The notes beneath the pieces are model-generated. The model saw only the letters and a list, made by a program, of their open reading frames with translations. It had not been told where the DNA came from and did no database searches. From Candidatus Nanobsidianus stetteri (GTDB lineage Archaea > Nanobdellota > Nanobdellia > Nanobdellales > Nanobdellaceae), in NCBI RefSeq assembly GCF_003086415.1, contig NZ_QEFP02000016.1, forward strand, positions 160 to 32,159: 32,000 nucleotides of DNA, read 5' to 3'. Made by a program: the position numbers and the translations under genes. How positions within the stretch are numbered: position 1 is the first letter of the stretch; the number at the start of each line of letters is the position of its first letter. This document shows positions 5,329 through 31,908 of the stretch, piece after piece.

Positions 5329-5955
5329 ATGATGAAACTAGTCATTACCCTGTCGGTGAGGAGTCTAAAAGATATAAAATTAGTTTCTGCTCTAGATTCT
5401 GATCTAGTAGAGCTCAGACTGGACTACCTGAGGAGACCAGAAGACTTCGACCCATCCTTAATCGATGATATAAAGGATAGAGTTATTGTAACTGTAAGAG
5501 ATCCCAGTGAAGGGGGAATCAAGGAGGTGGATGAAGATTGGAAGGCTTCACTTTACAAGAAACTTCATGACATGGGGGTGCTTTACGATGTAGAAGCCAG
5601 GTTCTTGAGGAAGAGAAAAGATATCCCATTCGAAGGGAAAATAGTATCTGCTCATTTCTTCGACAGAGTTCCTAGTATAAAGGAAGTGGAGGAAATCTTC
5701 AAGAGTTTCGAGGAGGCCTGGATAAAGAAACTGGCAGTGACCGCAAGAGAAGGTTACAAAGAACTTCTAGCTCACTTCGCCAGAAAAGGTTTCGCTATCA
5801 TGCCCATGGGATCGGACCCAATTGAAAGGATAGCCTTCGCTATACTAGGATCAGAACTTATTTATGCAAGCCTCGATAAGGGTTTAGAAACAGCCCCAGG
5901 GCAAATGAGTTACAAAAAGGTTAAAGAAATCTTGTCCTGTCTAGGACTACGCTAA
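5329..5955 (+). CDS. aroD: Type I 3-dehydroquinate dehydratase
   Basis: The 208-aa product shows AroD-type landmarks: LVELRLDYL, VTVRDPSEGG, IVSAHFF, KLAVTA, MPMGS...RIAF and APGQMS. Sampled lines are 37-50% GC, about twice the surrounding genome. Confidence 0.75.
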   Translation: MMKLVITLSVRSLKDIKLVSALDSDLVELRLDYLRRPEDFDPSLIDDIKDRVIVTVRDPSEGGIKEVDEDWKASLYKKLHDMGVLYDVEARFLRKRKDIPFEGKIVSAHFFDRVPSIKEVEEIFKSFEEAWIKKLAVTAREGYKELLAHFARKGFAIMPMGSDPIERIAFAILGSELIYASLDKGLETAPGQMSYKKVKEILSCLGLR

Positions 5956-10398: not shown

Positions 10399-12177
10399 CT
10401 AATTGTTTTTATATTTTTTTATATTTAAATAATCTTTAATAAAATTATACAACTCTTCACCAATCTTTTTCTCATTTTCCTTCATAACTTTAGACAAATC
10501 TTTTATTATTTCAATATTTTCTTCAATTATTTTTTCCTTTAAACTTATATCTGGTTTGCTTTCTAATTTTTCCAAATTTTCTTCCATTTTTCTTGTAAAG
10601 TTTATATCTAAAATATCTGGATAATATCTCTCAAATATTTCAACAATTTTTTTACCCAATTCGGTGATTTTTATTGATTTACCTTCTACGTATTTTCTCT
10701 TAAATAATATTTCAACAATATCCGCCCTTGTGCTTTTTGTTCCTAGATTCAATTCTTCCATTTTTTTAACTAGGGATGCTTTATTATATCTTGCTGGTGG
10801 TTTTGTTTTTTTCTTTGATATATAAACCTTATCTATAAACAATTTTTCTCCTACATTAAATTTTAAAGAAACAAAATTATCCTTATATTTTTCCCAATAA
10901 ATATCCAACCATCCCTTATATTTTATATCATAATAATCATAAACAAAATTTTCTTTTGTAATAACATTTATTTTATATATAATTGCAGGATCATAAAATG
11001 TAGCAATAAATCTCCTAACTACCAAATCATAAATTAATTTTTCCTTATATTCTAAATATTCTGGAATATTTCCTGTAGGATGTATTGCTGGATGTACATC
11101 ATCCTTAGATCCATTGTTTGGTTTTAAAATTTGTTTTTCCAATAAAAGAACAATATATTTCTTATAAGAATTTATTAATGATAAATTTGATAATATTTCT
11201 TTAAAGTTAATTGTTTCTGGTAATCTTTGGGAAGATGTTCTTGGATAAGATACATAACCCTTTTCATATAAAGATTGTAAAATATCTAAAGTTCTTTTTG
11301 GACTAATTTTATAATATTTATATGCATCCATCTGTATATCTGTTAAATTATATGGATGTGGAGGGTTTATTTTTTCCTCTTTTTTATCTACATTACTAAT
11401 AATTAAGTATTTTCCCAAATTATTTTTTATTTTGTTTGCTTCATCTTTATCCTTTATTTTATCTTTTATATATGAAAATTTCAACTTTTTATCATCCTTT
11501 ATAACCAAAGCTTCAACTTTATAATATTCTTCTGGTTTAAAATTTTCAATTTCTTTTTCTCTATTAAATACTAACATTAATGTTGGACCCTGGACCCTTC
11601 CAATGCTCAAAACAAATTTTCTAGTATAATAAAATAAAGACTTTGTTAATGCTCTAGATAAATTTATACCATACAACCAATCAATTATATGCCTTGTCTC
11701 TCCAGCATATATATATCCAAAATTTAAACTTTCTTTCCTATTATTAAAAGCTCTTACAATATCTTTATATGTTATTGCAGAAAATATCATTCTATCTGCA
11801 TTTTCTTTATTTAATACATATCTTAAAATGTTATAACCTATTAATTCTCCTTCTATATCATAATCTGTTGCGATTATTATATTATTTTCATTTTTAAATT
11901 TACTGAACATTTCAATATAATATTTCTTTGCAATAATTCTATCTTCAAAATATGATGGAACCCATCTATAATTGAATGTTGGATATTCATATTTTTTATC
12001 TAAATCTGATAATGTAAATAAATGACCAATTGAAGGGACAACGTATACATTTTTTCCTTCCAAATTAAAATAATAATAATATATATTTTTTGAAAATTTT
12101 ATTTTTTTATACTTATTATTTGATAAAAATGATGAAATTTTTCTAGCTACAGAAGGTTTTTCCGCAATTATTAGCAT
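10399..12177 (-). CDS. topA: Type IA DNA topoisomerase (Topo III-like, no C-terminal zinc fingers)
   Basis: The Toprim domain starts at residue 2 (LIIAEKPSVARKI), with DYDIEGE as the acidic Toprim motif and the active-site Tyr in GYVSYPRTSSQRL. Length is 592 aa. Confidence 0.85.
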   Translation of the reverse strand: MLIIAEKPSVARKISSFLSNNKYKKIKFSKNIYYYYFNLEGKNVYVVPSIGHLFTLSDLDKKYEYPTFNYRWVPSYFEDRIIAKKYYIEMFSKFKNENNIIIATDYDIEGELIGYNILRYVLNKENADRMIFSAITYKDIVRAFNNRKESLNFGYIYAGETRHIIDWLYGINLSRALTKSLFYYTRKFVLSIGRVQGPTLMLVFNREKEIENFKPEEYYKVEALVIKDDKKLKFSYIKDKIKDKDEANKIKNNLGKYLIISNVDKKEEKINPPHPYNLTDIQMDAYKYYKISPKRTLDILQSLYEKGYVSYPRTSSQRLPETINFKEILSNLSLINSYKKYIVLLLEKQILKPNNGSKDDVHPAIHPTGNIPEYLEYKEKLIYDLVVRRFIATFYDPAIIYKINVITKENFVYDYYDIKYKGWLDIYWEKYKDNFVSLKFNVGEKLFIDKVYISKKKTKPPARYNKASLVKKMEELNLGTKSTRADIVEILFKRKYVEGKSIKITELGKKIVEIFERYYPDILDINFTRKMEENLEKLESKPDISLKEKIIEENIEIIKDLSKVMKENEKKIGEELYNFIKDYLNIKKYKNN

Positions 12178-13256
12178 TAATTATATTTCTTAAATAATTC
12201 TATATAATTTTCGCATATTTTCTTTTTAATATTATTTCCATCATAACAAATACCAAATCCTCCCCCATGTTCCTTTCCCCATTCATTTACAATATCTCCA
12301 AATGTCCAAATAAATACTGGAATATCTGAAGAAATCTTTTTTGTATATTTTATTGTCTCTTCAATATATTTATATCTGGTTTTTTCTTCTTCATAATTTT
12401 TAGCATATAGACCTGTTTCTGTTATCCAAATATTATCAACTCCAGATAATTTTTTATAATGAAATATTACATTCTGAATATCTTTTGGATTATATGCATT
12501 TATTATCCTTAGTAATTTACTTCCAAGATAATTTTTTCCATACAAATTAAATCCAAAAGTTCCATAATAATTTATGTCTAATACATTATAATAATTCCTC
12601 AATTTTTTAATTTGATTTTCAAAAGATTTTAGCAAATTATTAAGTGTTATTCCTATATTTTCTGAATAAAGAGAATAAACATTAAAATGTATTATCTTTT
12701 CTCTTTTGAATTCATCGTAAATATATCCTTGTATTTCTTCTACATTTTCTAAAAATCTATTTAGATAAAAAATTCCACTTGGATTTATTAGAACATTCAT
12801 AAAATAAGTATTTATTGGCTCATTTACAGGACATATATGTTTTACATAGCCAAATATTTCTTTTACATTTTCTATATGATTTATAAAATACTTAAGAAAA
12901 TCTTTATCAAAAATACTTACCCAATTTCTCGGATATGTAAAATGTAATAATACCAAAAGTACATCAATTCCCTGATCTTTATATCTTTCTAATAAATATA
13001 AAATATTTTTTAATTTATTTTTATCTATTTTTCCATCTGAATTTTCTACATATGATGATAAATAAGATAGTCTAACATTTTTTACATTATATTGTAATGT
13101 TGAAAGTTCTATTAATTTATCTAAATCTGATTTATTATCTAAATTTATATTATTTCTTCTATTATCTAAAAATCTATATTTTTTATAGAATATATCATTC
13201 TCTATATTTGATTCTCTAGCAACCTGAACTAAGCTATAGGATATACCTATAGTCAT
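12177..13256 (-). CDS. Clan GH-A glycoside hydrolase, short GH1-like
   Basis: The acid/base motif is VNEPINTY and the nucleophile motif is IWITETG. LLHFTYPRNW and FIWTFGDIVNEWGKEHGGGFGI mirror the GH1 blocks (tLyHwD.P.wl; WSl.DnfEW..Gy..rfG). At 359 aa it is shorter than typical GH1 enzymes. Confidence 0.6.
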   Translation of the reverse strand: MTIGISYSLVQVARESNIENDIFYKKYRFLDNRRNNINLDNKSDLDKLIELSTLQYNVKNVRLSYLSSYVENSDGKIDKNKLKNILYLLERYKDQGIDVLLVLLHFTYPRNWVSIFDKDFLKYFINHIENVKEIFGYVKHICPVNEPINTYFMNVLINPSGIFYLNRFLENVEEIQGYIYDEFKREKIIHFNVYSLYSENIGITLNNLLKSFENQIKKLRNYYNVLDINYYGTFGFNLYGKNYLGSKLLRIINAYNPKDIQNVIFHYKKLSGVDNIWITETGLYAKNYEEEKTRYKYIEETIKYTKKISSDIPVFIWTFGDIVNEWGKEHGGGFGICYDGNNIKKKICENYIELFKKYN

Positions 13257-15094: not shown

Positions 15095-16105
15095 ATGATA
15101 AATTATTTCGAATTAAAGAAATGGTATAATGATAATGCTGAAAAAATAAATAATTCAATAGTAAAAAATATATATAATATTGAAGATGGAGTTGTTTTTG
15201 AATTATATAAGCCTGGTTTGGAAAATAGATTTTTATATATAATCCCGGGAAAAATTATTTTTCTATATAATGTTAAAGAAAGGGAAGAAATAAATAATTT
15301 TACACTAAAATTAAGGAAAGATTTTAATGAAACAAAAATAAATATTGAAATTGATAATAGTGATAAAATTATAATAATAAAAAATAATGAAAAAAAGTTA
15401 TATGTAGAGCTTTTTCCAAATGGGTTGTTAATTGTAACTGATTATAATGATATAATTTTATATGCAAACCAATATAAGAACTTTGGAGTAAGAAAGATAT
15501 TTAGAAATGAAAAATATACAAAACCACCAGGTTCCGTAAATATTATAAATAATATAAATGAATTTTTTGAAAAGGTAAATAATACAAATAAAAAGGATGT
15601 TGTAAGATTTTTAGCAGTAGATTTATCTTTGGGAGGAAAATATTCTGAATATATAGTAAAAAAAGCAAATATTGAAAAAAATAAAAGTCCAAAAGAATTA
15701 AATAAAGAAGAAATAGAAAAAATATATAATATTTATAATGAAATAGTAAACTTAAAGATATTAATAGATGAAAGTGGAAATATTATTGGGGATATTAATA
15801 AATATTTCATAAATCTTTATTTAAATAGTAGGGAAAATAAAAGGATAAGAAAATTAAATGAAGAAAAAGAAAAAATAAAAAGAATAATTGAGGAACAGAA
15901 AAGGTATTTGGAAGAAATTAATAAGGAAATTAATAAATTAGAGAAAATTGGTGAATTTTTAAACATATATTCATGGATATTCAAAGACTATGATGAAAAT
16001 AGTATAATAAAAAATTTTAGAGAACTTAATATTAATATAGATATTAAAAGGGATAATAAATATTTAATTGTTAATATAGATGATAAATATTTAGAGAATA
16101 AATAA
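15095..16105 (+). CDS. NFACT-N / RqcH (FbpA-like) N-terminal half only
   Basis: The N-terminus (YFELKKWYNDNAEKINNSIVKNIYNIEDGVVFELYKPG...RFLYIIPG) fits NFACT-N. This is followed by an HhH-like segment (VVRFLAVDLSLGGKYSEYIVKKANI) and the start of a coiled coil (RIRKLNEEKEKIKRIIEEQKRYLEEINKEINKLEK). The ORF ends at 336 aa without an NFACT-R part. Confidence 0.65.
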   Translation: MINYFELKKWYNDNAEKINNSIVKNIYNIEDGVVFELYKPGLENRFLYIIPGKIIFLYNVKEREEINNFTLKLRKDFNETKINIEIDNSDKIIIIKNNEKKLYVELFPNGLLIVTDYNDIILYANQYKNFGVRKIFRNEKYTKPPGSVNIINNINEFFEKVNNTNKKDVVRFLAVDLSLGGKYSEYIVKKANIEKNKSPKELNKEEIEKIYNIYNEIVNLKILIDESGNIIGDINKYFINLYLNSRENKRIRKLNEEKEKIKRIIEEQKRYLEEINKEINKLEKIGEFLNIYSWIFKDYDENSIIKNFRELNINIDIKRDNKYLIVNIDDKYLENK

Positions 16106-26144: not shown

Positions 26145-27668
26145 TTATAATATTAAGAATAATTCCTTTGGCATATATAATATATTATCTCTAAATTCTA
26201 ATTCATAATCTCCAATAATAATTCCGTATTCAGCATTATATCTTTTCATACTATTTCTTACTTGTTTCTCTGCATTTTTATCTTTTCCATATTTAACCTC
26301 TATAGGTATTATTTTATTTTCAAAGGTCTTTATTAAAAAATCTGCACTATTTTTATTAGGATCATAAAAAACATTTATGTTTGACATATTATGAGTTATT
26401 TGTATTTTATATAATGTTGAAGCTATGTATTCTTCAAATAAGAATCCTATATCACTTTCTTTAAATGTTCCTAAATAATCTTTTATCATAAATCTTATTG
26501 TTGGTGTTATAAAATAACGTTTCCAAGTTTTTCTGCTTATTTTTTCTTCACTTCCCAATGGTTTAATAGAAAATATTAAAGAAGACATTTCTAAATATTC
26601 TAAAATATTCTGTACATTTTCTTTACTTATGTTCAAACTATTTGAAATATTTTCTATGCTTGTTTTTTCTGAGCCTGCCAAATAATTTATAATTTTTATA
26701 GTATCTTTTATACTAGAAGATTTAATGTTATTTATTGTGGGGATATCTAAATAAGCAATTTTTTTAATTGTCTCCAATAACAAATCTTCAGAATCTTTTT
26801 TATATAATGCTGTAAATGGAAAACCTCCGAATTTTAGGAAATCTTCAATTTCAAAAGAATGTAATTTTATTTTTTTATATATCTCTATAATTTCGTTATT
26901 AGTAAAAAATTCGCTAGTAAATTTAGGAATAAGCGAATCATCTTTCAATAAGTTTAGTATTTTTTCCTTAAGTATTTTAGTTTTATAATATTTATCAATC
27001 TTTTTTGATATTTTTAAATATTCAATAAAGTTTAAAGGAAATAAATACTCTTTTTTGGCTCTTCTAGCTAAATCTGCAGTAGTTTCTTTTTCTAATTCTA
27101 ATGCAGAGGAACCTGTAGCAATTATAAATATACTTGGATACCCATCATAAATAACCTTTAATGTTAAAGCCCAATTTGGATCATGATTTACCTCATCTAA
27201 TAATAAAAATACTGGTTCTTCAGAAATTGCTAAATCTTCAAATAAGATTTTAGATTCATAAACTTCTATACTAGATCTTAAATCGTAATTAAGACTTTTT
27301 AAGTCATCTACAGATATAAACAATACCCTTTCTCTAGGTATATTCTTTTCTTTAATTAGGTATAAATATGTTTGATACAATAATGTTGTTTTGCCAGTCC
27401 CTCTTAATCCAGGTATGATAATTAATCTATCAATCTTAGTATTTTTTTCAAGAAAATTATTTATATGGTTTTTTATTCTGGAAAAGATGTGTCTTTTTGG
27501 AAGTGGTTTATTATTCTCATCTGTAGTATATCTTAAGGCTAACTTTTCTGTATATTGTATTCTTCTTTCTAGGTAGGTTTTTAGTATGTCAATATCCATG
27601 ATATTATAATAACATTTAATATTATAAGTTTTATCATTTGTCGTAATTCTTAGTATTAATACATCCAT
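26145..27668 (-). CDS. AAA+ ATPase of the COG1373 type, paralog 2
   Basis: Walker A is PGLRGTGKTTLL and Walker B is FLLLDEVN, with C-terminal SADFLI...PIEVKYG restriction-endonuclease-like motifs. An alternative start at Met-24 (ATG at 27599; MDIDILKTYLERR) aligns better with paralog 1. Confidence 0.8.
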   Translation of the reverse strand: MDVLILRITTNDKTYNIKCYYNIMDIDILKTYLERRIQYTEKLALRYTTDENNKPLPKRHIFSRIKNHINNFLEKNTKIDRLIIIPGLRGTGKTTLLYQTYLYLIKEKNIPRERVLFISVDDLKSLNYDLRSSIEVYESKILFEDLAISEEPVFLLLDEVNHDPNWALTLKVIYDGYPSIFIIATGSSALELEKETTADLARRAKKEYLFPLNFIEYLKISKKIDKYYKTKILKEKILNLLKDDSLIPKFTSEFFTNNEIIEIYKKIKLHSFEIEDFLKFGGFPFTALYKKDSEDLLLETIKKIAYLDIPTINNIKSSSIKDTIKIINYLAGSEKTSIENISNSLNISKENVQNILEYLEMSSLIFSIKPLGSEEKISRKTWKRYFITPTIRFMIKDYLGTFKESDIGFLFEEYIASTLYKIQITHNMSNINVFYDPNKNSADFLIKTFENKIIPIEVKYGKDKNAEKQVRNSMKRYNAEYGIIIGDYELEFRDNILYMPKELFLIL

Positions 27669-27718
27669 AATAATATATTAGTTTTTAGTATTTATATATT
27701 TTATTTTTTCATAATAGT

Positions 27719-27734
27719 TGGTATATTAATACCA
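27719..27734. promoter_or_regulatory. Palindrome TGGTAT-ATTA-ATACCA upstream of AAA+ ATPase paralog 2
   Basis: tggtatattaatacca is a 6+4+6 dyad. It uses the same half-site (TGGTAT/ATACCA) as the dyads inside the 49-bp repeats at paralog 1. Confidence 0.45.
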
Positions 27735-27803
27735 TGTTTGTATCCTAAAAATTAGGATGAAAAATATAAATTATTATTGTACCAAATTGTGCGATAAAGA
27801 AAT

Positions 27804-30374
27804 TTATATTATCTTATTTAAGTTCTTTAGACTCCTTTTATCTAAATCCTTCAATATTATTTGATACAAATTATCATTTTCATCAATAAAAAGAATCTTA
27901 TCTTCAAAAATAAAAAGATTTTCTGGAGATGTTATTTTTATTTCTAATTCTTTATTATTTATAATAGTATTTAATATTATTGTTTCGCCTTCAACATCTA
28001 TTTTTCTTATTTTTTCTATTTTATATATTATAGAATTATATCTAATTGCATTTTCTAATATTTTTCTAGAATTTTCATCCAAAATTGTATAATCTTCTAA
28101 TAAAAATATTTCATTGAAATTATCATCATAAAATCCTACAAATTTTGGATTTGATATTGGGAATAATAATTTTGGCATAAGATTCTCATATTTTTTACCA
28201 TTATATACAACATTTACTCTACTAGGTCTATTAGTTGGTTCTATTATTACATTTTTATCTTTTATTATATTTAAATTAATTATTTCCGATTCTTTATTAA
28301 CTTTTTCAATTTTTTCTAAATTTTCTATTTGATTTTTAAATAATTCATAGAACTTTCCCTTTTTATTTATTAATTCCTCTAGTTTTCCTTCTTCTACAAT
28401 TTTTCCATCTTCTATAACAATAATTCTATCCATATTTAACATTTCTGATAAATTATGTGAAATATATATTAAAGTTTTATCTTTTGATATATTTAATATA
28501 GCGGAAAAAATATTTTCTCTACTTTTAGCATCAATATTTGATGTTAATTCATCAAATATAAATATATCAGGATTTCTTATTATATTTCTTGCAATTGCTA
28601 TTTTTTGTTTTTGTCCGCCAGATAATTTTGTTCCTTCTTCTCCTGCTGGAGTATCATATGCAAAAGGTAATTTAATTATATCATCATGTATATTTACAAT
28701 TTTGCAAACTTTAATTATTTCTATTTCATTTACATTTGGATTTCCATAAGATATATTATATCTAATAGTATTATCAAAGATTTCTGGATTTTGAGATAAA
28801 TAAGAAATCCTTTCTCTAAGATATTTTGAATCTATATCCTTTATATTTGTATTTCCAATCAGTATTTCTCCATCATTTACGTCATAAAATCTTAATAATA
28901 ATTTTGCAATTGTTGTTTTTCCAGCTCCGTTTTTTCCGACAATTGCAACTTTTTCTTTTGGTTTTATTGTAAAAGAAATATTTTTTAATACAGGGAAACC
29001 TGGTTCATATTCAAAAGTAACATTAACAAATTTTATTTCATCAACAATATTTGGTTTTAAAGCATTCTCTTTATTTAATATTTTTGGTTTTTCTTCTAAT
29101 AATTCTAGTATTCTTTCAGCAGAAATCAAAGTGCTTGGCAAGTCTCTAAAAAACCTTTCATATGTTGTATAGAGTGGGCTATAAATATATGAAGTATAAG
29201 ATATAAAAGCAACCAATATACCTAACTTAATTAGATTATTAATTACAAAAGTTCCACCAAAATACCATATAAATACGGTAGTTAAATCCATTATAAAAGA
29301 TATCAAGTCTGCTCTTATTATGAAAAATTTTACTAATTTGGTATCTATGAAATACCAATCGTTTATTGTGTTTTTTGTTTTTTCATATTCTTCTCTTTCC
29401 TTTGAGAATAACTTAATACTATAAAAATTCCTAAGAATATTAACTAACTTCGTAAAGATATCTACTGACTTTATTGTTGCTTTTTTGCCAACTGTTCTTG
29501 CTTTTCTTTCATAAATTATAAAAAGAGCAAATGCAACTATTGTTGTAATTATAACAGGTATTGCTAAAAAGGGCAATAATAGAAAGAGTATAATAATTGT
29601 TCCAATAATCATTAAAGTATCTATAATTATAGAGGGCAGATCATATGCAATAAAATAATTTATTCTTCCTATATCGGATTGATATCTAGATATTAATCTA
29701 GAAGGAGAATATTTTTCTACAAAAGAAATATCATTGAAAATTATATGTTCTAATAATAATTCTCTTAGTTCTTTTATAATTTTTATCTGTGTAATGTTCA
29801 TTAAAAAATCTCCTATTAGATATAAAAATCTATAGCTAATATAAGACATTAGCATTAAGAAAATTATTGTAAGAAATACTTGCTGCGATGGGGTTTTTGA
29901 TATAAGAACTTTATTTATTAGTAAAGCTGTTAAATAAGGAGGAATTAGACTTATTATAGTACCTATAATAAAGATAATAATAACTAAAGTAAGTTCTTTC
30001 TTATATTTTTTAATAATTTGCATTAAAAATCCATATATTTCTTTTTTAGATCTTTTCCTTTCTTCTTCTTTTTCAATTATTTCTGTTTTTACTTTTAAAT
30101 TAAATTCATCTACAATTTTCCGTATATTATCTGCTTTTTTCTTTGTAAAATATGCAACTTCAAAAACTTTTCCATCTTTATCTATTGCAATTAATTTACA
30201 TATACTAATTCCATATTCTATATTTAGTTTTTCTACATTATCAATTTCTAATATTTTGTTTTTATTATCATCATATACAGAAATTTTATCATCTAAAATT
30301 TCAATAGTTTCTTCAGTAAAATTAAGATTTCTATCAAGATCCGTTTTAAATATTGCTTTAAAATGATCTGTCAT
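27804..30374 (-). CDS. ABC exporter half-transporter (TMD plus NBD) with an extra N-terminal soluble domain and a C-terminal DUF1854-like domain
   Basis: A six-TM ABC exporter-type region is followed by Walker A GKNGAGKTT, signature LSGGQKQKIAIAR and Walker B IFIFDELTS. An N-terminal domain of about 115 aa precedes the TMD. The C-terminal roughly 165 aa (LLFPISNPKFVGFYDDNFNEIFLLEDYTILDENSRKIL...LFIDENDNLYQI..DLDKRSLKNL) match my recollection of DUF1854. Confidence 0.75.
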   Translation of the reverse strand: MTDHFKAIFKTDLDRNLNFTEETIEILDDKISVYDDNKNKILEIDNVEKLNIEYGISICKLIAIDKDGKVFEVAYFTKKKADNIRKIVDEFNLKVKTEIIEKEEERKRSKKEIYGFLMQIIKKYKKELTLVIIIFIIGTIISLIPPYLTALLINKVLISKTPSQQVFLTIIFLMLMSYISYRFLYLIGDFLMNITQIKIIKELRELLLEHIIFNDISFVEKYSPSRLISRYQSDIGRINYFIAYDLPSIIIDTLMIIGTIIILFLLLPFLAIPVIITTIVAFALFIIYERKARTVGKKATIKSVDIFTKLVNILRNFYSIKLFSKEREEYEKTKNTINDWYFIDTKLVKFFIIRADLISFIMDLTTVFIWYFGGTFVINNLIKLGILVAFISYTSYIYSPLYTTYERFFRDLPSTLISAERILELLEEKPKILNKENALKPNIVDEIKFVNVTFEYEPGFPVLKNISFTIKPKEKVAIVGKNGAGKTTIAKLLLRFYDVNDGEILIGNTNIKDIDSKYLRERISYLSQNPEIFDNTIRYNISYGNPNVNEIEIIKVCKIVNIHDDIIKLPFAYDTPAGEEGTKLSGGQKQKIAIARNIIRNPDIFIFDELTSNIDAKSRENIFSAILNISKDKTLIYISHNLSEMLNMDRIIVIEDGKIVEEGKLEELINKKGKFYELFKNQIENLEKIEKVNKESEIINLNIIKDKNVIIEPTNRPSRVNVVYNGKKYENLMPKLLFPISNPKFVGFYDDNFNEIFLLEDYTILDENSRKILENAIRYNSIIYKIEKIRKIDVEGETIILNTIINNKELEIKITSPENLFIFEDKILFIDENDNLYQIILKDLDKRSLKNLNKII

Positions 30375-30485: not shown

Positions 30486-30644
30486 ATGTTTAAAGGATGG
30501 AAAACGTTAAGAGAAGAAATTAAAAGAAAAGAAAAAGAGAAAAGATTGAAAGCAATAAGAAGGTTAGGAGAATTATTGGAGAAGACAGGTGCTACTCCTG
30601 AAGAAACTATAAAAATAATAAGGGAAATTAGGGAAGAAAATTAA
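30486..30644 (+). CDS. Possible small basic helical protein (52 aa)
   Basis: Translation is MFKGWKTLREEIKRKEKEKRLKAIRRLGELLEKTGATPEETIKIIREIREEN, below the track cutoff. Only the ORF and its position in an otherwise empty gap support it. Confidence 0.3.
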   Translation: MFKGWKTLREEIKRKEKEKRLKAIRRLGELLEKTGATPEETIKIIREIREEN

Positions 30645-30718
30645 AATGAAAATTTAGTCTTTATTCTGAAAATACAGGTTTATTAAAATATTAGAAGATG
30701 CAATTTAAAAATTAAATC

Positions 30719-30802
30719 CGCCGCGGGTGGGATTTGAACCCACGCCCCCTTTCGGGGATATGGTCTCCAGCCATACCCCTTGGTCCGCTCGGGCACCGCG
30801 GC
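30719..30802 (-). tRNA. tRNA-Ser (anticodon GGA), class II with a long variable arm; no encoded CCA
   Basis: The minus strand reads GCCGCGG-TG-CCC..GGG-G-TATGG-CTGGAGA-CCATA-TCCCCGAAAGGGGGC-GTGGG-TTCAAAT-CCCAC-CCGCGGC-G. All four stems are Watson-Crick, the anticodon loop is CT-GGA-GA, the variable stem is CCCC/GGGG and the T-loop is TTCAAAT. Confidence 0.93.
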
Positions 30803-30804
30803 AT

Positions 30805-30870
30805 AAATGTCCCCCGCCCATCGTTACCAATACTCATCTTTTCATATTGGTTCGTCTAAGCGGGGATACA
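30805..30870 (-). ncRNA. Single-hairpin archaeal H/ACA box guide sRNA (predicted de novo)
   Basis: Minus-strand elements, 5' to 3':
- Lower stem UCCCCGC (30866-30860) pairs with GCGGGGG (30817-30811).
- The internal pocket is UUAGACGA (30859-30852) opposite AACGAUGG (30825-30818).
- Upper stem ACCAAUA (30851-30845) pairs with UAUUGGU (30832-30826).
- The apical loop UGAAAAGAUGAG forms a K-loop with U.G plus tandem sheared G.A/A.G pairs.
- ACA lies at 30810-30808, 15 nt from the base of the upper stem.
The element is a GC-rich island in AT-rich DNA. Confidence 0.75.
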
Positions 30871-30902
30871 TATTTAATATAATTTAATATAAAAATATTT
30901 TT

Positions 30903-31835
30903 ATGTTAACAAGAAATTTATTAGAAAAGGTAAGTCAAAAAATAAATCAAATAAAAAAAGATGAAGAAAATAATAAAGAAGAAAAAATTAATATTGGAAA
31001 ATTAAATTTTGATAATTTTGAAGTAAAAGAAAAGAAAAAATATGGATTTATAGATTCTTCTCATGTAAATGGAATTGTTGGACCTTATAGTTATATATAT
31101 TCTAGGGCAGTGATTGTTTCTGACGATATATATGAAATTATAGAAGATATAGAATTTTTTGAAACATCTTTTATAAGATCAATTAATAATGAAAATTTTG
31201 ATATTCAAGATATTTCAGAACTACTATCAAAAAATTTAGAATATAAATTGGCAAGAAAATATTCTGATAGATATATATTTATAGATGGATCAATAATATC
31301 AGATTCTATATTATATTCAAAATTTTTAGATAATTTTTATAATGAAAATATTGAAAATAGGAGAAAAGAATTTTTAGAAAATTTTGAGTATTTAATAAAT
31401 AATGGAAATTTATTGGCAGTTGCAAAAAGAATATTAAATTTAGATATAATAAAGCCAGGTAGATCTGATTTATTAACATTGATGAAAGTTTTTCCATCAG
31501 AAATATTTTATACAGATATTAATGAAAAACAATTAAAGGAATTTTTAAGTTCAAAAATTCCAAACTGTTCTTTTTGTAACAAAAAAATATATATAATATA
31601 TTTTAGGGCAAGATATAATGATCATATATATAGATTAGAAGGAATGGAAAAAGTTGAAAAAGAAAAGTTTAAAGAAATAATAAAAGAGGTTATTTATGAT
31701 CAAAAATCATATCCAAGAGGATTAAAAATGGCTCATAATTTATGTAAAATAACAAATAAAGAAAAATTATTGTTAGAAAGTTATATTAAAAAAATTTTAG
31801 GATTTGAAAAAACTGTTGGTTGGGAAACTCATTAG
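30903..31835 (+). CDS. nurA: NurA-family 5'-3' nuclease
   Basis: The first Asp motif is YGFIDSSH, the second is YIFIDGSIISD, and the C-terminal SYPRGLKMAHNLCKIT matches the gYP..L..AH..a.i block of NurA. Length is 310 aa. Confidence 0.7.
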   Translation: MLTRNLLEKVSQKINQIKKDEENNKEEKINIGKLNFDNFEVKEKKKYGFIDSSHVNGIVGPYSYIYSRAVIVSDDIYEIIEDIEFFETSFIRSINNENFDIQDISELLSKNLEYKLARKYSDRYIFIDGSIISDSILYSKFLDNFYNENIENRRKEFLENFEYLINNGNLLAVAKRILNLDIIKPGRSDLLTLMKVFPSEIFYTDINEKQLKEFLSSKIPNCSFCNKKIYIIYFRARYNDHIYRLEGMEKVEKEKFKEIIKEVIYDQKSYPRGLKMAHNLCKITNKEKLLLESYIKKILGFEKTVGWETH

Positions 31836-31908
31836 GGTCCGGGGCGGGATTCGAACCCGCGATCTTCAGGTCCACAGCCTGACGCCTTACCACTAGGCTA
31901 CCCGGACC
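31836..31908 (-). tRNA. tRNA-His (anticodon GUG) with genomically encoded G-1; no encoded CCA
   Basis: The minus strand reads G(-1)-GTCCGGG-TA-GCCT-AGTGGTA-AGGC-G-TCAGG-CTGTGGA-CCTGA-AGATC-GCGGG-TTCGAAT-CCCGC-CCCGGAC-C. All stems are perfect. The extra 5' G lies opposite the discriminator C. The 3' end abuts the nurA stop codon (31833-31835). Confidence 0.93.

Follow-up and report, generated by a model that had tools for sequence, protein, structure and literature searches.

A probable dicistronic precursor of a single-hairpin H/ACA-type guide RNA and tRNA-Ser(GGA) in Nanobsidianus, with RNase P as the candidate maker of the guide 3' end

In this study, we analyzed a 32,000-nt stretch of DNA from the heat-loving nanoarchaeon Candidatus Nanobsidianus stetteri (contig NZ_QEFP02000016.1, positions 160 to 32,159; hereafter the window), in which a hairpin resembling an H/ACA-type guide small RNA (sRNA) lies directly upstream of a tRNA-Ser(GGA) gene on the minus strand. 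We consider it probable that this single-hairpin H/ACA guide and the tRNA are made as one precursor, and that cleavage by ribonuclease P (RNase P) at tRNA position +1 forms the 3' end of the sRNA. Comparison of the locus among related genomes gives good support to a dicistronic precursor that is cleaved at tRNA +1; the start site, the read-through, the cleavage site, the identity of the nuclease and the guide function are what we infer from sequence. The original prediction had proposed one transcription unit with its promoter upstream of the hairpin and none inside it, a proposal that now finds comparative support in a conserved fusion and in natural controls.

The window has a G+C content of 23%, and strongly G+C-rich islands are confined to two tRNA genes and to the stretch immediately preceding one of these. 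In the 5' to 3' direction of the minus strand, the locus runs UAUCCCCGC-UUAGACGAA-CCAAUA-UGAAAAGAUGAG-UAUUGG-UAACGAUG-GGCGGGGG-ACA-UUUAU, followed by G(+1, 30802) of tRNA-Ser. The hairpin, 59 nt long with its ACA box, occupies 30808-30866 (89.3 bits with the covariance model described below). Its lower stem is formed by the 5' strand UCCCCGC (30860-30866) and the 3' strand GCGGGGG (30811-30817), and its 6-bp upper stem by CCAAUA (30845-30850) and UAUUGG (30827-30832), both 3' strands being assigned by pairing and covariation. Between the two stems lie the strands of a pseudouridylation pocket, the 5' strand UUAGACGAA at 30851-30859, delimited by comparison of orthologues, and the 3' strand UAACGAUGG at 30818-30826, which contains a conserved core, ACGAUG. 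The upper stem is closed by a K-loop motif, U-GA-AAAGAU-GA-G (30833-30844), a putative L7Ae site, and the ACA box (30808-30810) directly follows the lower stem, as it does in 13 of 13 orthologues. The tRNA-Ser(GGA) gene extends over 30719-30802 (ARAGORN; Rfam RF00005, 54.6 bits), with CCA not encoded. As had been noted before, only UUUAU separates the ACA box from tRNA +1, the minus strand reading GGGGG-ACA(30810-30808)-UUUAU(30807-30803)-G(30802); we propose that this spacer is both the 3' tail of the sRNA and positions -5 to -1 of the tRNA leader, and that RNase P would cut between 30803 and 30802.

First, the hairpin has the features of a conserved H/ACA-type RNA. Published criteria for such RNAs comprise a lower stem of at least 7 bp, a pocket of 5-11 nt per strand and an upper stem (PMC2377435), and the archaeal layout is found here, with a lower stem of 7-9 bp, pocket strands of 7-9 nt and an upper stem of 6 bp. 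The last of these fits the rules derived from Pyrococcus, in which the upper stem has 5-6 bp and 14-15 nt separate the ACA box from the target position (PMC2377435). The predicted fold has an energy of -26.9 kcal/mol (z = -5.2 relative to shuffled sequences). An exact-pattern scan of one genome per species recovered the hairpin core in nine Nanobdellota genomes, and three more distant copies (L254, L255 and L256) were added through the contigs of NurA homologues; a covariance model built from the orthologues found one copy per locus, with scores of 67-90 bits. In 13 orthologues all of the 156 stem cells were standard pairs and five of the 12 pairs had changed on both sides, counts that lean toward structure given that the alignment was fitted to the covariance model, although the raw sequences themselves show these compensatory changes. 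A MAFFT alignment mis-registered the lower stem of Nanobdella and KM4331, which the covariance-model alignment corrected. None of 500 shuffles reached the observed pairing and covariation values, and registers slid along the sequence were only 35-55% paired. The upper stem occurs as CCAAUA/UAUUGG, CCAAUG/CAUUGG, CCUUUA/UAAAGG and CCGGUG/CACCGG, and in the lower stem C-G is replaced by U-A in Nanoarchaeota archaeon YN1 and, at two places, in Nanobdella.

The unpaired pocket strands were better conserved than the stems across orthologues. The 5' strand is invariant in Nanopusillus, YN1, the KM4331-like genome and Nanobdella, its changes in L255 being exclusively A to G, and the ACGAUG core of the 3' strand is conserved, one A/G-variable position being seen in Nanobsidianus stetteri Nst1 and CON-C. 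The changes were mostly A to G (UUAGACGAA to UUGGACGAG; UAACGAUG to UAGCGAUG or UGACGAUG), which is consistent with what would be expected of a guide that pairs with U residues of its target. The K-loop pattern N-GA...AUGA-N, capable of tandem G.A pairs, closes the 6-bp upper stem in all 13 sequences. At relaxed thresholds the last hairpin of the Pyrococcus H/ACA RNA Pab40 (Rfam family HgcG, RF00064) aligned with the window hairpin (21.1 bits, E = 0.0023) stem for stem, GAUGA to GAUGA and ACA to ACA.

From the pocket strands, the target of the guide is predicted to read 5'-CAUCGU(U)A-UN-(U)UCGUC(U)AA-3'. A direct search with this pattern is too unspecific, with 119 random matches in viral contigs alone, and no candidate site recurred at a homologous position among 80 archaeal rRNA loci (16S-anchored; none of them Nanopusillaceae-like). 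The pocket guide sequences are UAUCGAAA in Nanobdella and UUCGAAGAA in L254, a contig of the metagenome-assembled genome (MAG) JBMFJL, and they differ at positions that would need either a changed target or tolerance of mismatches. Motif 3 of Pab40 has been assigned to 23S U2016; the idea that the present hairpin is an orthologue of that motif with the same target was dropped, as the pocket sequences differ. The published targets of the H/ACA RNA of Nanoarchaeum equitans were likewise not transferable, the guide sequences being different.

Second, the fusion of hairpin and tRNA is conserved. Of the nine species-level genomes with the hairpin, eight have a tRNA-Ser gene beginning 1-5 nt past the ACA box, as does the more distant MAG JBMFJL. 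The same anatomy recurs in these genomes, and the arrangement is not due to chance. On the Nst1 contig APJZ01000002 (L011) the same hairpin-UUUAU-tRNA-Ser unit is found at about 95% identity. The spacer UUUAU is shared by the window, Nanopusillus acidilobi, Nst1 and three MAGs, and is replaced by CUUAU in RHS.bin.5, ACAU in the KM4331-like genome, GAU in JBMFJL and one U in YN1; each of the five spacer types has U at position -1 of the tRNA. The H/ACA-linked slot holds tRNA-Ser(GGA) in most lineages (30719-30802 in the window) and tRNA-Ser(GCU) in JBMFJL (L254, 2802-2886). The unlinked tRNA-Ser of Nanobdella (L003, 719-804) is also Ser(GCU), and the tRNA bodies are near-identical, with the anticodon arm alone differing; an anticodon switch or an exchange of isoacceptor genes could account for this difference.

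Loci in which the two RNAs are apart serve as natural controls. In Nanobdella, a 1320-amino-acid open reading frame (ORF) of about 4 kb splits the hairpin from tRNA-Ser, which still adjoins the gene for ribosomal protein L18. This unlinked tRNA-Ser has its own TTTAAATT box at -32 to -25, which is where box A has been reported in the tRNA genes of N. equitans. At the distant locus L255, the hairpin is found without an adjacent tRNA and reads ACA-AA-TTTTTTT, with an oligo-T (T7) terminator 2 nt past the ACA box, and the hairpin of L256 also stands alone, followed by a T-rich tail. Thus, neither a promoter nor a terminator signal is seen at the junction of the fused loci, whereas both appear in the unfused versions, the former at the Nanobdella tRNA and the latter at the L255 hairpin. 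These natural controls (Nanobdella, L255 and L256) support co-transcription of the fused pair. With regard to the Nanobdella aerobiophila ORF itself (L003, 872-4834), it takes exactly the place of the 1-5 nt spacer of the other genomes, contains no Pfam domain and is preceded by a TTTTATAT box of its own, about 24 nt upstream of the ATG.

Third, promoter signals pointed to the same conclusion. For each RNA, positions -40 to -16 relative to the 5' end were scored for their closest match to TTTAWATA, and A/T runs were counted; a scan for sigma-70 promoters and hairpin terminators was set aside, these being bacterial models that are uninformative for an archaeon. Upstream of the hairpin, matches of 6-8 of 8 positions were found at -36 to -21 in all 12 lineages scored, tRNA-His had matches of 6-7 of 8, and the unlinked tRNA-Ser of Nanobdella had 7 of 8. 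In contrast, the best match of the fused tRNA-Ser in 11 loci was only 4-5 of 8, with 22-39% G+C from -40 to -18. In the window, the TATA-box candidate of the unit, TTTTTATATT, was found at 30886-30895, where the original prediction had placed it, 19 nt before the first hairpin base; it contains the best match (TTTTTATA, 7 of 8) at -29 to -22 from that base and is preceded by an A-run at 30896-30902, a possible B recognition element (BRE). Judging from the distance to this box, transcription is predicted to start at G30869 or A30867 (30867-30869), each of which follows a T. The divergent NurA gene on the plus strand (30903-31835; Pfam NurA, E = 1.2e-11) has its start codon 36 nt from the hairpin, and this short distance means that the divergent promoters must sit back to back. 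The H/ACA hairpin lies divergently upstream of NurA in all 13 loci.

For the tRNA-Ser of the window, the best match from -40 to -16 was 4 of 8, and the longest A/T-only run from -40 to -18 was 4. The absence of a TATA-like sequence between -35 and -20 that had been claimed earlier thus held up, although the bases quoted for this region, GGUAACGAUGGGCGGGGG, actually lie at about -26 to -9, a shift of about 9 nt; the region itself reads AUGAGUAUUGGUAACG and covers the K-loop's 3' portion, the upper stem and the first bases of the pocket. N. equitans has no RNase P, and all of its tRNAs start at +1 with box A 26 nt upstream (PMC3491384). A leaderless tRNA gene of this type, with a TATA box about 26 nt upstream, is not what is seen at tRNA-Ser of the window, where -40 to -16 falls inside the hairpin, and it is what is seen at the unlinked tRNA-Ser of Nanobdella.

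The leaderless tRNAs of N. equitans do lend some weight to the idea of two transcription units, in which a tRNA-Ser promoter lying inside the H/ACA gene, for example in the K-loop, would start transcription at or near +1 and read-through from the sRNA would be incidental. The K-loop is the only A/T-richer part of the hairpin and contains an A/T run of 6-7 nt in RHS.bin.5 and RSNS12. However, nothing between -40 and -16 matches the TATA consensus at more than 4-5 of 8 positions, and a box in the K-loop, at about -46 to -36, would direct a start near -15, so that removal of a leader would still be needed. Lineages differ by 4 nt in how far the K-loop lies from +1, which misfits a fixed TATA-to-start distance, and the sequence of the K-loop is constrained by its own motif. 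Moreover, with a spacer of 1-5 nt and no terminator, a polymerase transcribing the sRNA would enter the tRNA anyway. Two separate units therefore appear unlikely.

In the single unit that we favor instead, transcription would proceed from the TATA box at 30886-30895, starting about 1-3 nt before the hairpin. The tRNA-Ser leader would then have about 65-67 nt, which fits the previous estimate of about 70 nt. No oligo-T is present in the spacer between hairpin and tRNA, which at 1-5 nt across orthologues leaves no room for a terminator; the polymerase, having passed the hairpin, would meet no stop there and would run through the tRNA. Termination at oligo-T is known for archaeal RNA polymerase, and on this basis a T5 run at 30707-30711 on the minus strand, 7 nt past the tRNA 3' end, is the candidate terminator of the unit. 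Transcription would probably end there, giving a precursor of about 150-160 nt. RNase P would cut between U(-1) and G(+1), producing the mature 5' end of the tRNA and leaving the sRNA with a 5-nt tail past the ACA box (1-5 nt across lineages). Such a tail would be near the mature 3' end of H/ACA RNAs and would be about as long as the one that the L255 hairpin, which stands alone, would keep if transcription ended in its T7 run. In the predicted fold of a 158-nt precursor, the two RNAs form independent domains and the linker ACAUUUAU is single-stranded. Features of an RNase P substrate are present, namely a canonical tRNA fold (54.6 bits), an unpaired 5' leader and U at -1. The possibility that the junction forms a bulge-helix-bulge for the splicing endonuclease was considered and rejected, the linker being unpaired in the precursor fold.

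The original prediction regarded a tRNA leader as a puzzle in view of N. equitans, but this puzzle disappears once the origin of the window is taken into account. The window DNA is 91-96% identical to Nanopusillus MAGs, Nanopusillus acidilobi and Nst1. Its NurA protein has relatives of 89-95% identity in hot-spring metagenomes and is 64% identical to that of YN1 and 56% to that of Nanobdella aerobiophila, with no identical NurA protein on record. Neighboring genes are archaeal and encode NurA, the PolD small subunit, Cdc6, TBP, FttA and ribosomal proteins S14, S8 and L18. On these sequence relationships, the window is from a terrestrial member of the Nanopusillaceae and not from a close relative of N. 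equitans. Nst1 has been reported to contain an unusually short RNase P RNA and three protein subunits (PMC3655853), and a later survey listed RPP21, RPP29, RPP30 and L7Ae in this organism, with Pop5 not found (PMC4919917). Because Nst1 carries the same unit and is reported to encode RNase P, RNase P activity is to be expected here as well, and the tRNA-Ser leader presents no paradox.

Several observations weigh against the unit as proposed. With regard to the guide, no Rfam H/ACA family reached its gathering score, HgcG, the only match, scoring 21.1 bits against a gathering score of 77, and the hairpin was filed as an H/ACA-type RNA of a family outside Rfam rather than as HgcG. The distance from the upper stem to the ACA box is 16 nt (15 in L256), compared with 14-15 nt in Pyrococcus, 16 being the eukaryal value. 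With flexible scoring, no guide target above background was found in Escherichia coli rrnH, in both strands of the window or in the 80 archaeal 16S/23S loci. With regard to the promoter, TATA calls are weak evidence in DNA of 23% G+C, and in the MAGs RSNP5 (L006) and CON-C (L007) the proposed box reads TTTTTGTATT, with a G, and not TTTTTATATT; either the G is tolerated, or the true box is the neighboring A/T stretch. The contrast between fused and unfused loci is a stronger promoter argument than single TATA calls. With regard to processing, the published RNase P RNA of Nst1 is atypically short and its Pop5 was not found (PMC3655853, PMC4919917), and within the window no gene for an RNase P protein (Pfam and NCBIfam, all ORFs of at least 80 amino acids) or RNase P RNA (Rfam) was detected. 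A protein-family search of the 32-kb window also yielded no gene for Cbf5, Nop10, Gar1 or L7Ae.

The points concerning the guide would suit a hairpin that is a mere structured leader of pre-tRNA-Ser, serving as a processing or stability element and degraded after cleavage, and not a trans-acting guide: no rRNA target emerged from E. coli rrnH and the 80 archaeal loci, the Rfam score is far under the gathering score, and the distance from ACA box to pocket is 1 nt above the Pyrococcus rule. Nevertheless, the hairpin is kept with its pocket, K-loop and ACA box in Nanobdella, L255 and L256, where no tRNA is adjacent, and the L255 copy has its own terminator. In addition, the pocket strands surpass the stems in conservation and have undergone mostly A-to-G changes, which would be expected of a guide and not of a leader. 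A role confined to the leader is thus highly improbable, and an H/ACA-type guide RNA is the reading that we retain.

Similarly, the apparent degeneracy of the published Nst1 RNase P (short RNA, no Pop5) might suggest that the two RNAs are indeed co-transcribed but are separated by a different nuclease, such as the tRNA-splicing endonuclease, a PIN-domain or beta-CASP nuclease, or by exonucleolytic trimming from two sides. RNase P in the window's own genome rests on the literature about a sister genome, and in YN1 a distance of just 1 nt separates the cut site from the ACA box, to which aCBF5 is known to bind, so that access of RNase P could be hindered. On the other hand, the junction has no bulge-helix-bulge, as the linker is single-stranded, the precursor presents a canonical pre-tRNA in which U at -1 is conserved, and RNase P is the known universal activity for the tRNA 5' cut, with its genes reported in this clade. 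A 5'-to-3' exonuclease would also destroy the conserved sRNA. We therefore attach a low probability to another nuclease and regard RNase P as the candidate enzyme.

If RNase P does cut at this site, a further possibility arises, which we put forward tentatively and consider somewhat doubtful. RNase P cleavage may be an obligatory 3'-end step of the H/ACA sRNA-protein complex, with the ACA box 1-5 nt from the scissile bond, so that tRNA maturation and assembly of the guide ribonucleoprotein (RNP) would be physically coupled and the fusion would lock in the reduced RNase P of the Nanopusillaceae. Such locking-in would follow if tRNA-Ser, essential and present in a single copy, lacks a separate promoter. 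The ACA box is known to bind aCBF5, and RNase P and the H/ACA RNP both contain L7Ae. If this idea is true, N. equitans could lose RNase P, whereas the Nanopusillaceae would keep a reduced form.

Some other features of the window were also observed. On the far side of NurA, the minus strand carries a tRNA-His gene (31836-31907) for which the G at -1 is encoded. The end of this gene adjoins the stop codon of NurA, and no base separates the two convergent genes, an arrangement kept in all related loci (31835-31908 in the window); tRNA-His has an A/T-only box at about -29 to -22, and its transcription might start at or near G-1. On the other side of the unit, the region 26145-30374 (minus strand), between the L18 gene and tRNA-Ser, encodes an AAA_14/DUF4143 ATPase and an ABC transporter with a DUF1854 tail. 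In YN1, the KM4331-like genome and JBMFJL, L18 is the immediate neighbor of the tRNA, and Nanopusillus genomes part from the window exactly at the 3' end of tRNA-Ser, near 30709; this region is a variable island beside tRNA-Ser. A 52-amino-acid Lys/Glu-rich ORF without family match (30486-30644, plus strand) lies in the 340-nt gap between the start of the ABC transporter and tRNA-Ser, in a stretch without alignment to Nst1. The aroD gene for a type I 3-dehydroquinase (5329-5955, plus strand) has 38-55% G+C in a genome of 23% G+C and looks like a recent foreign acquisition by an organism with little biosynthesis. At 10399-13256 (minus strand), a 359-amino-acid ORF without Pfam match overlaps by one base a 592-amino-acid ORF with Toprim and topoisomerase domains; Nanoarchaeota are known to have a split reverse gyrase, which this pair may represent. 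Finally, the match of a 336-amino-acid ORF (15095-16105, plus strand) to the ribosome-rescue protein RqcH is limited to the N-terminal third of that protein.

Comparison with known systems shows both similarities and differences. From archaea and plants, guide-RNA/tRNA dicistrons are known only with the tRNA first and a C/D box RNA second, and RNase Z makes the 5' end of the guide (PMC3491384, PMC7994747, PMC4247193). The present unit would resemble them in having one promoter and in using a tRNA end-processing cut to make an end of both RNAs. It differs in that the guide comes first and is of the H/ACA class, and RNase P, acting at the tRNA 5' end, would make the guide 3' end. No report of an H/ACA-then-tRNA unit was found in the literature searched, a limited set of papers. 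In this locus the order is reversed and the guide is an H/ACA RNA, and RNase P would take on a second role in forming the 3' end of a guide RNP. RNase P cleavage at a tRNA or tRNA-like fold makes the 3' end of the upstream RNA in MALAT1-mascRNA, in MEN-beta and in the tRNA punctuation of mitochondrial transcripts. The nearest mechanistic parallel, by analogy, would be this RNase P-dependent 3'-end formation in MALAT1-mascRNA or mitochondrial transcripts. Those cases differ in being eukaryotic nuclear or organellar, and their upstream RNAs are long non-coding RNAs, mRNAs or rRNAs and not a guide sRNP; moreover, the tRNA-like element of MALAT1 is not a functional tRNA.

With respect to the guide itself, the third hairpin of Pab40/HgcG shares with the window hairpin the lower stem, the pocket, the upper stem, a GAUGA-type K motif and the ACA box, whereas Pab40/HgcG as a whole has three hairpins, other pocket sequences and hence another target, and has not been reported beside a tRNA. 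N. equitans belongs to the same phylum and likewise has a very AT-rich genome with GC-rich RNA genes, and the TTTAAA box of the unlinked tRNA-Ser in Nanobdella lies at an N. equitans-like distance. However, the single H/ACA RNA of N. equitans has two hairpins, other guide sequences and its own promoter and terminator (PMC3491384), and N. equitans starts all of its tRNAs at +1, which the fused tRNA-Ser described here cannot do. That N. equitans lives without RNase P is left unchallenged by this locus. For the Nanopusillaceae, in contrast, the tRNA-Ser unit would be a concrete essential substrate of RNase P in a clade in which this enzyme is reportedly reduced, and the fused, split and stand-alone versions found within one family represent a natural experiment on the loss or gain of promoters and terminators in shrinking genomes.

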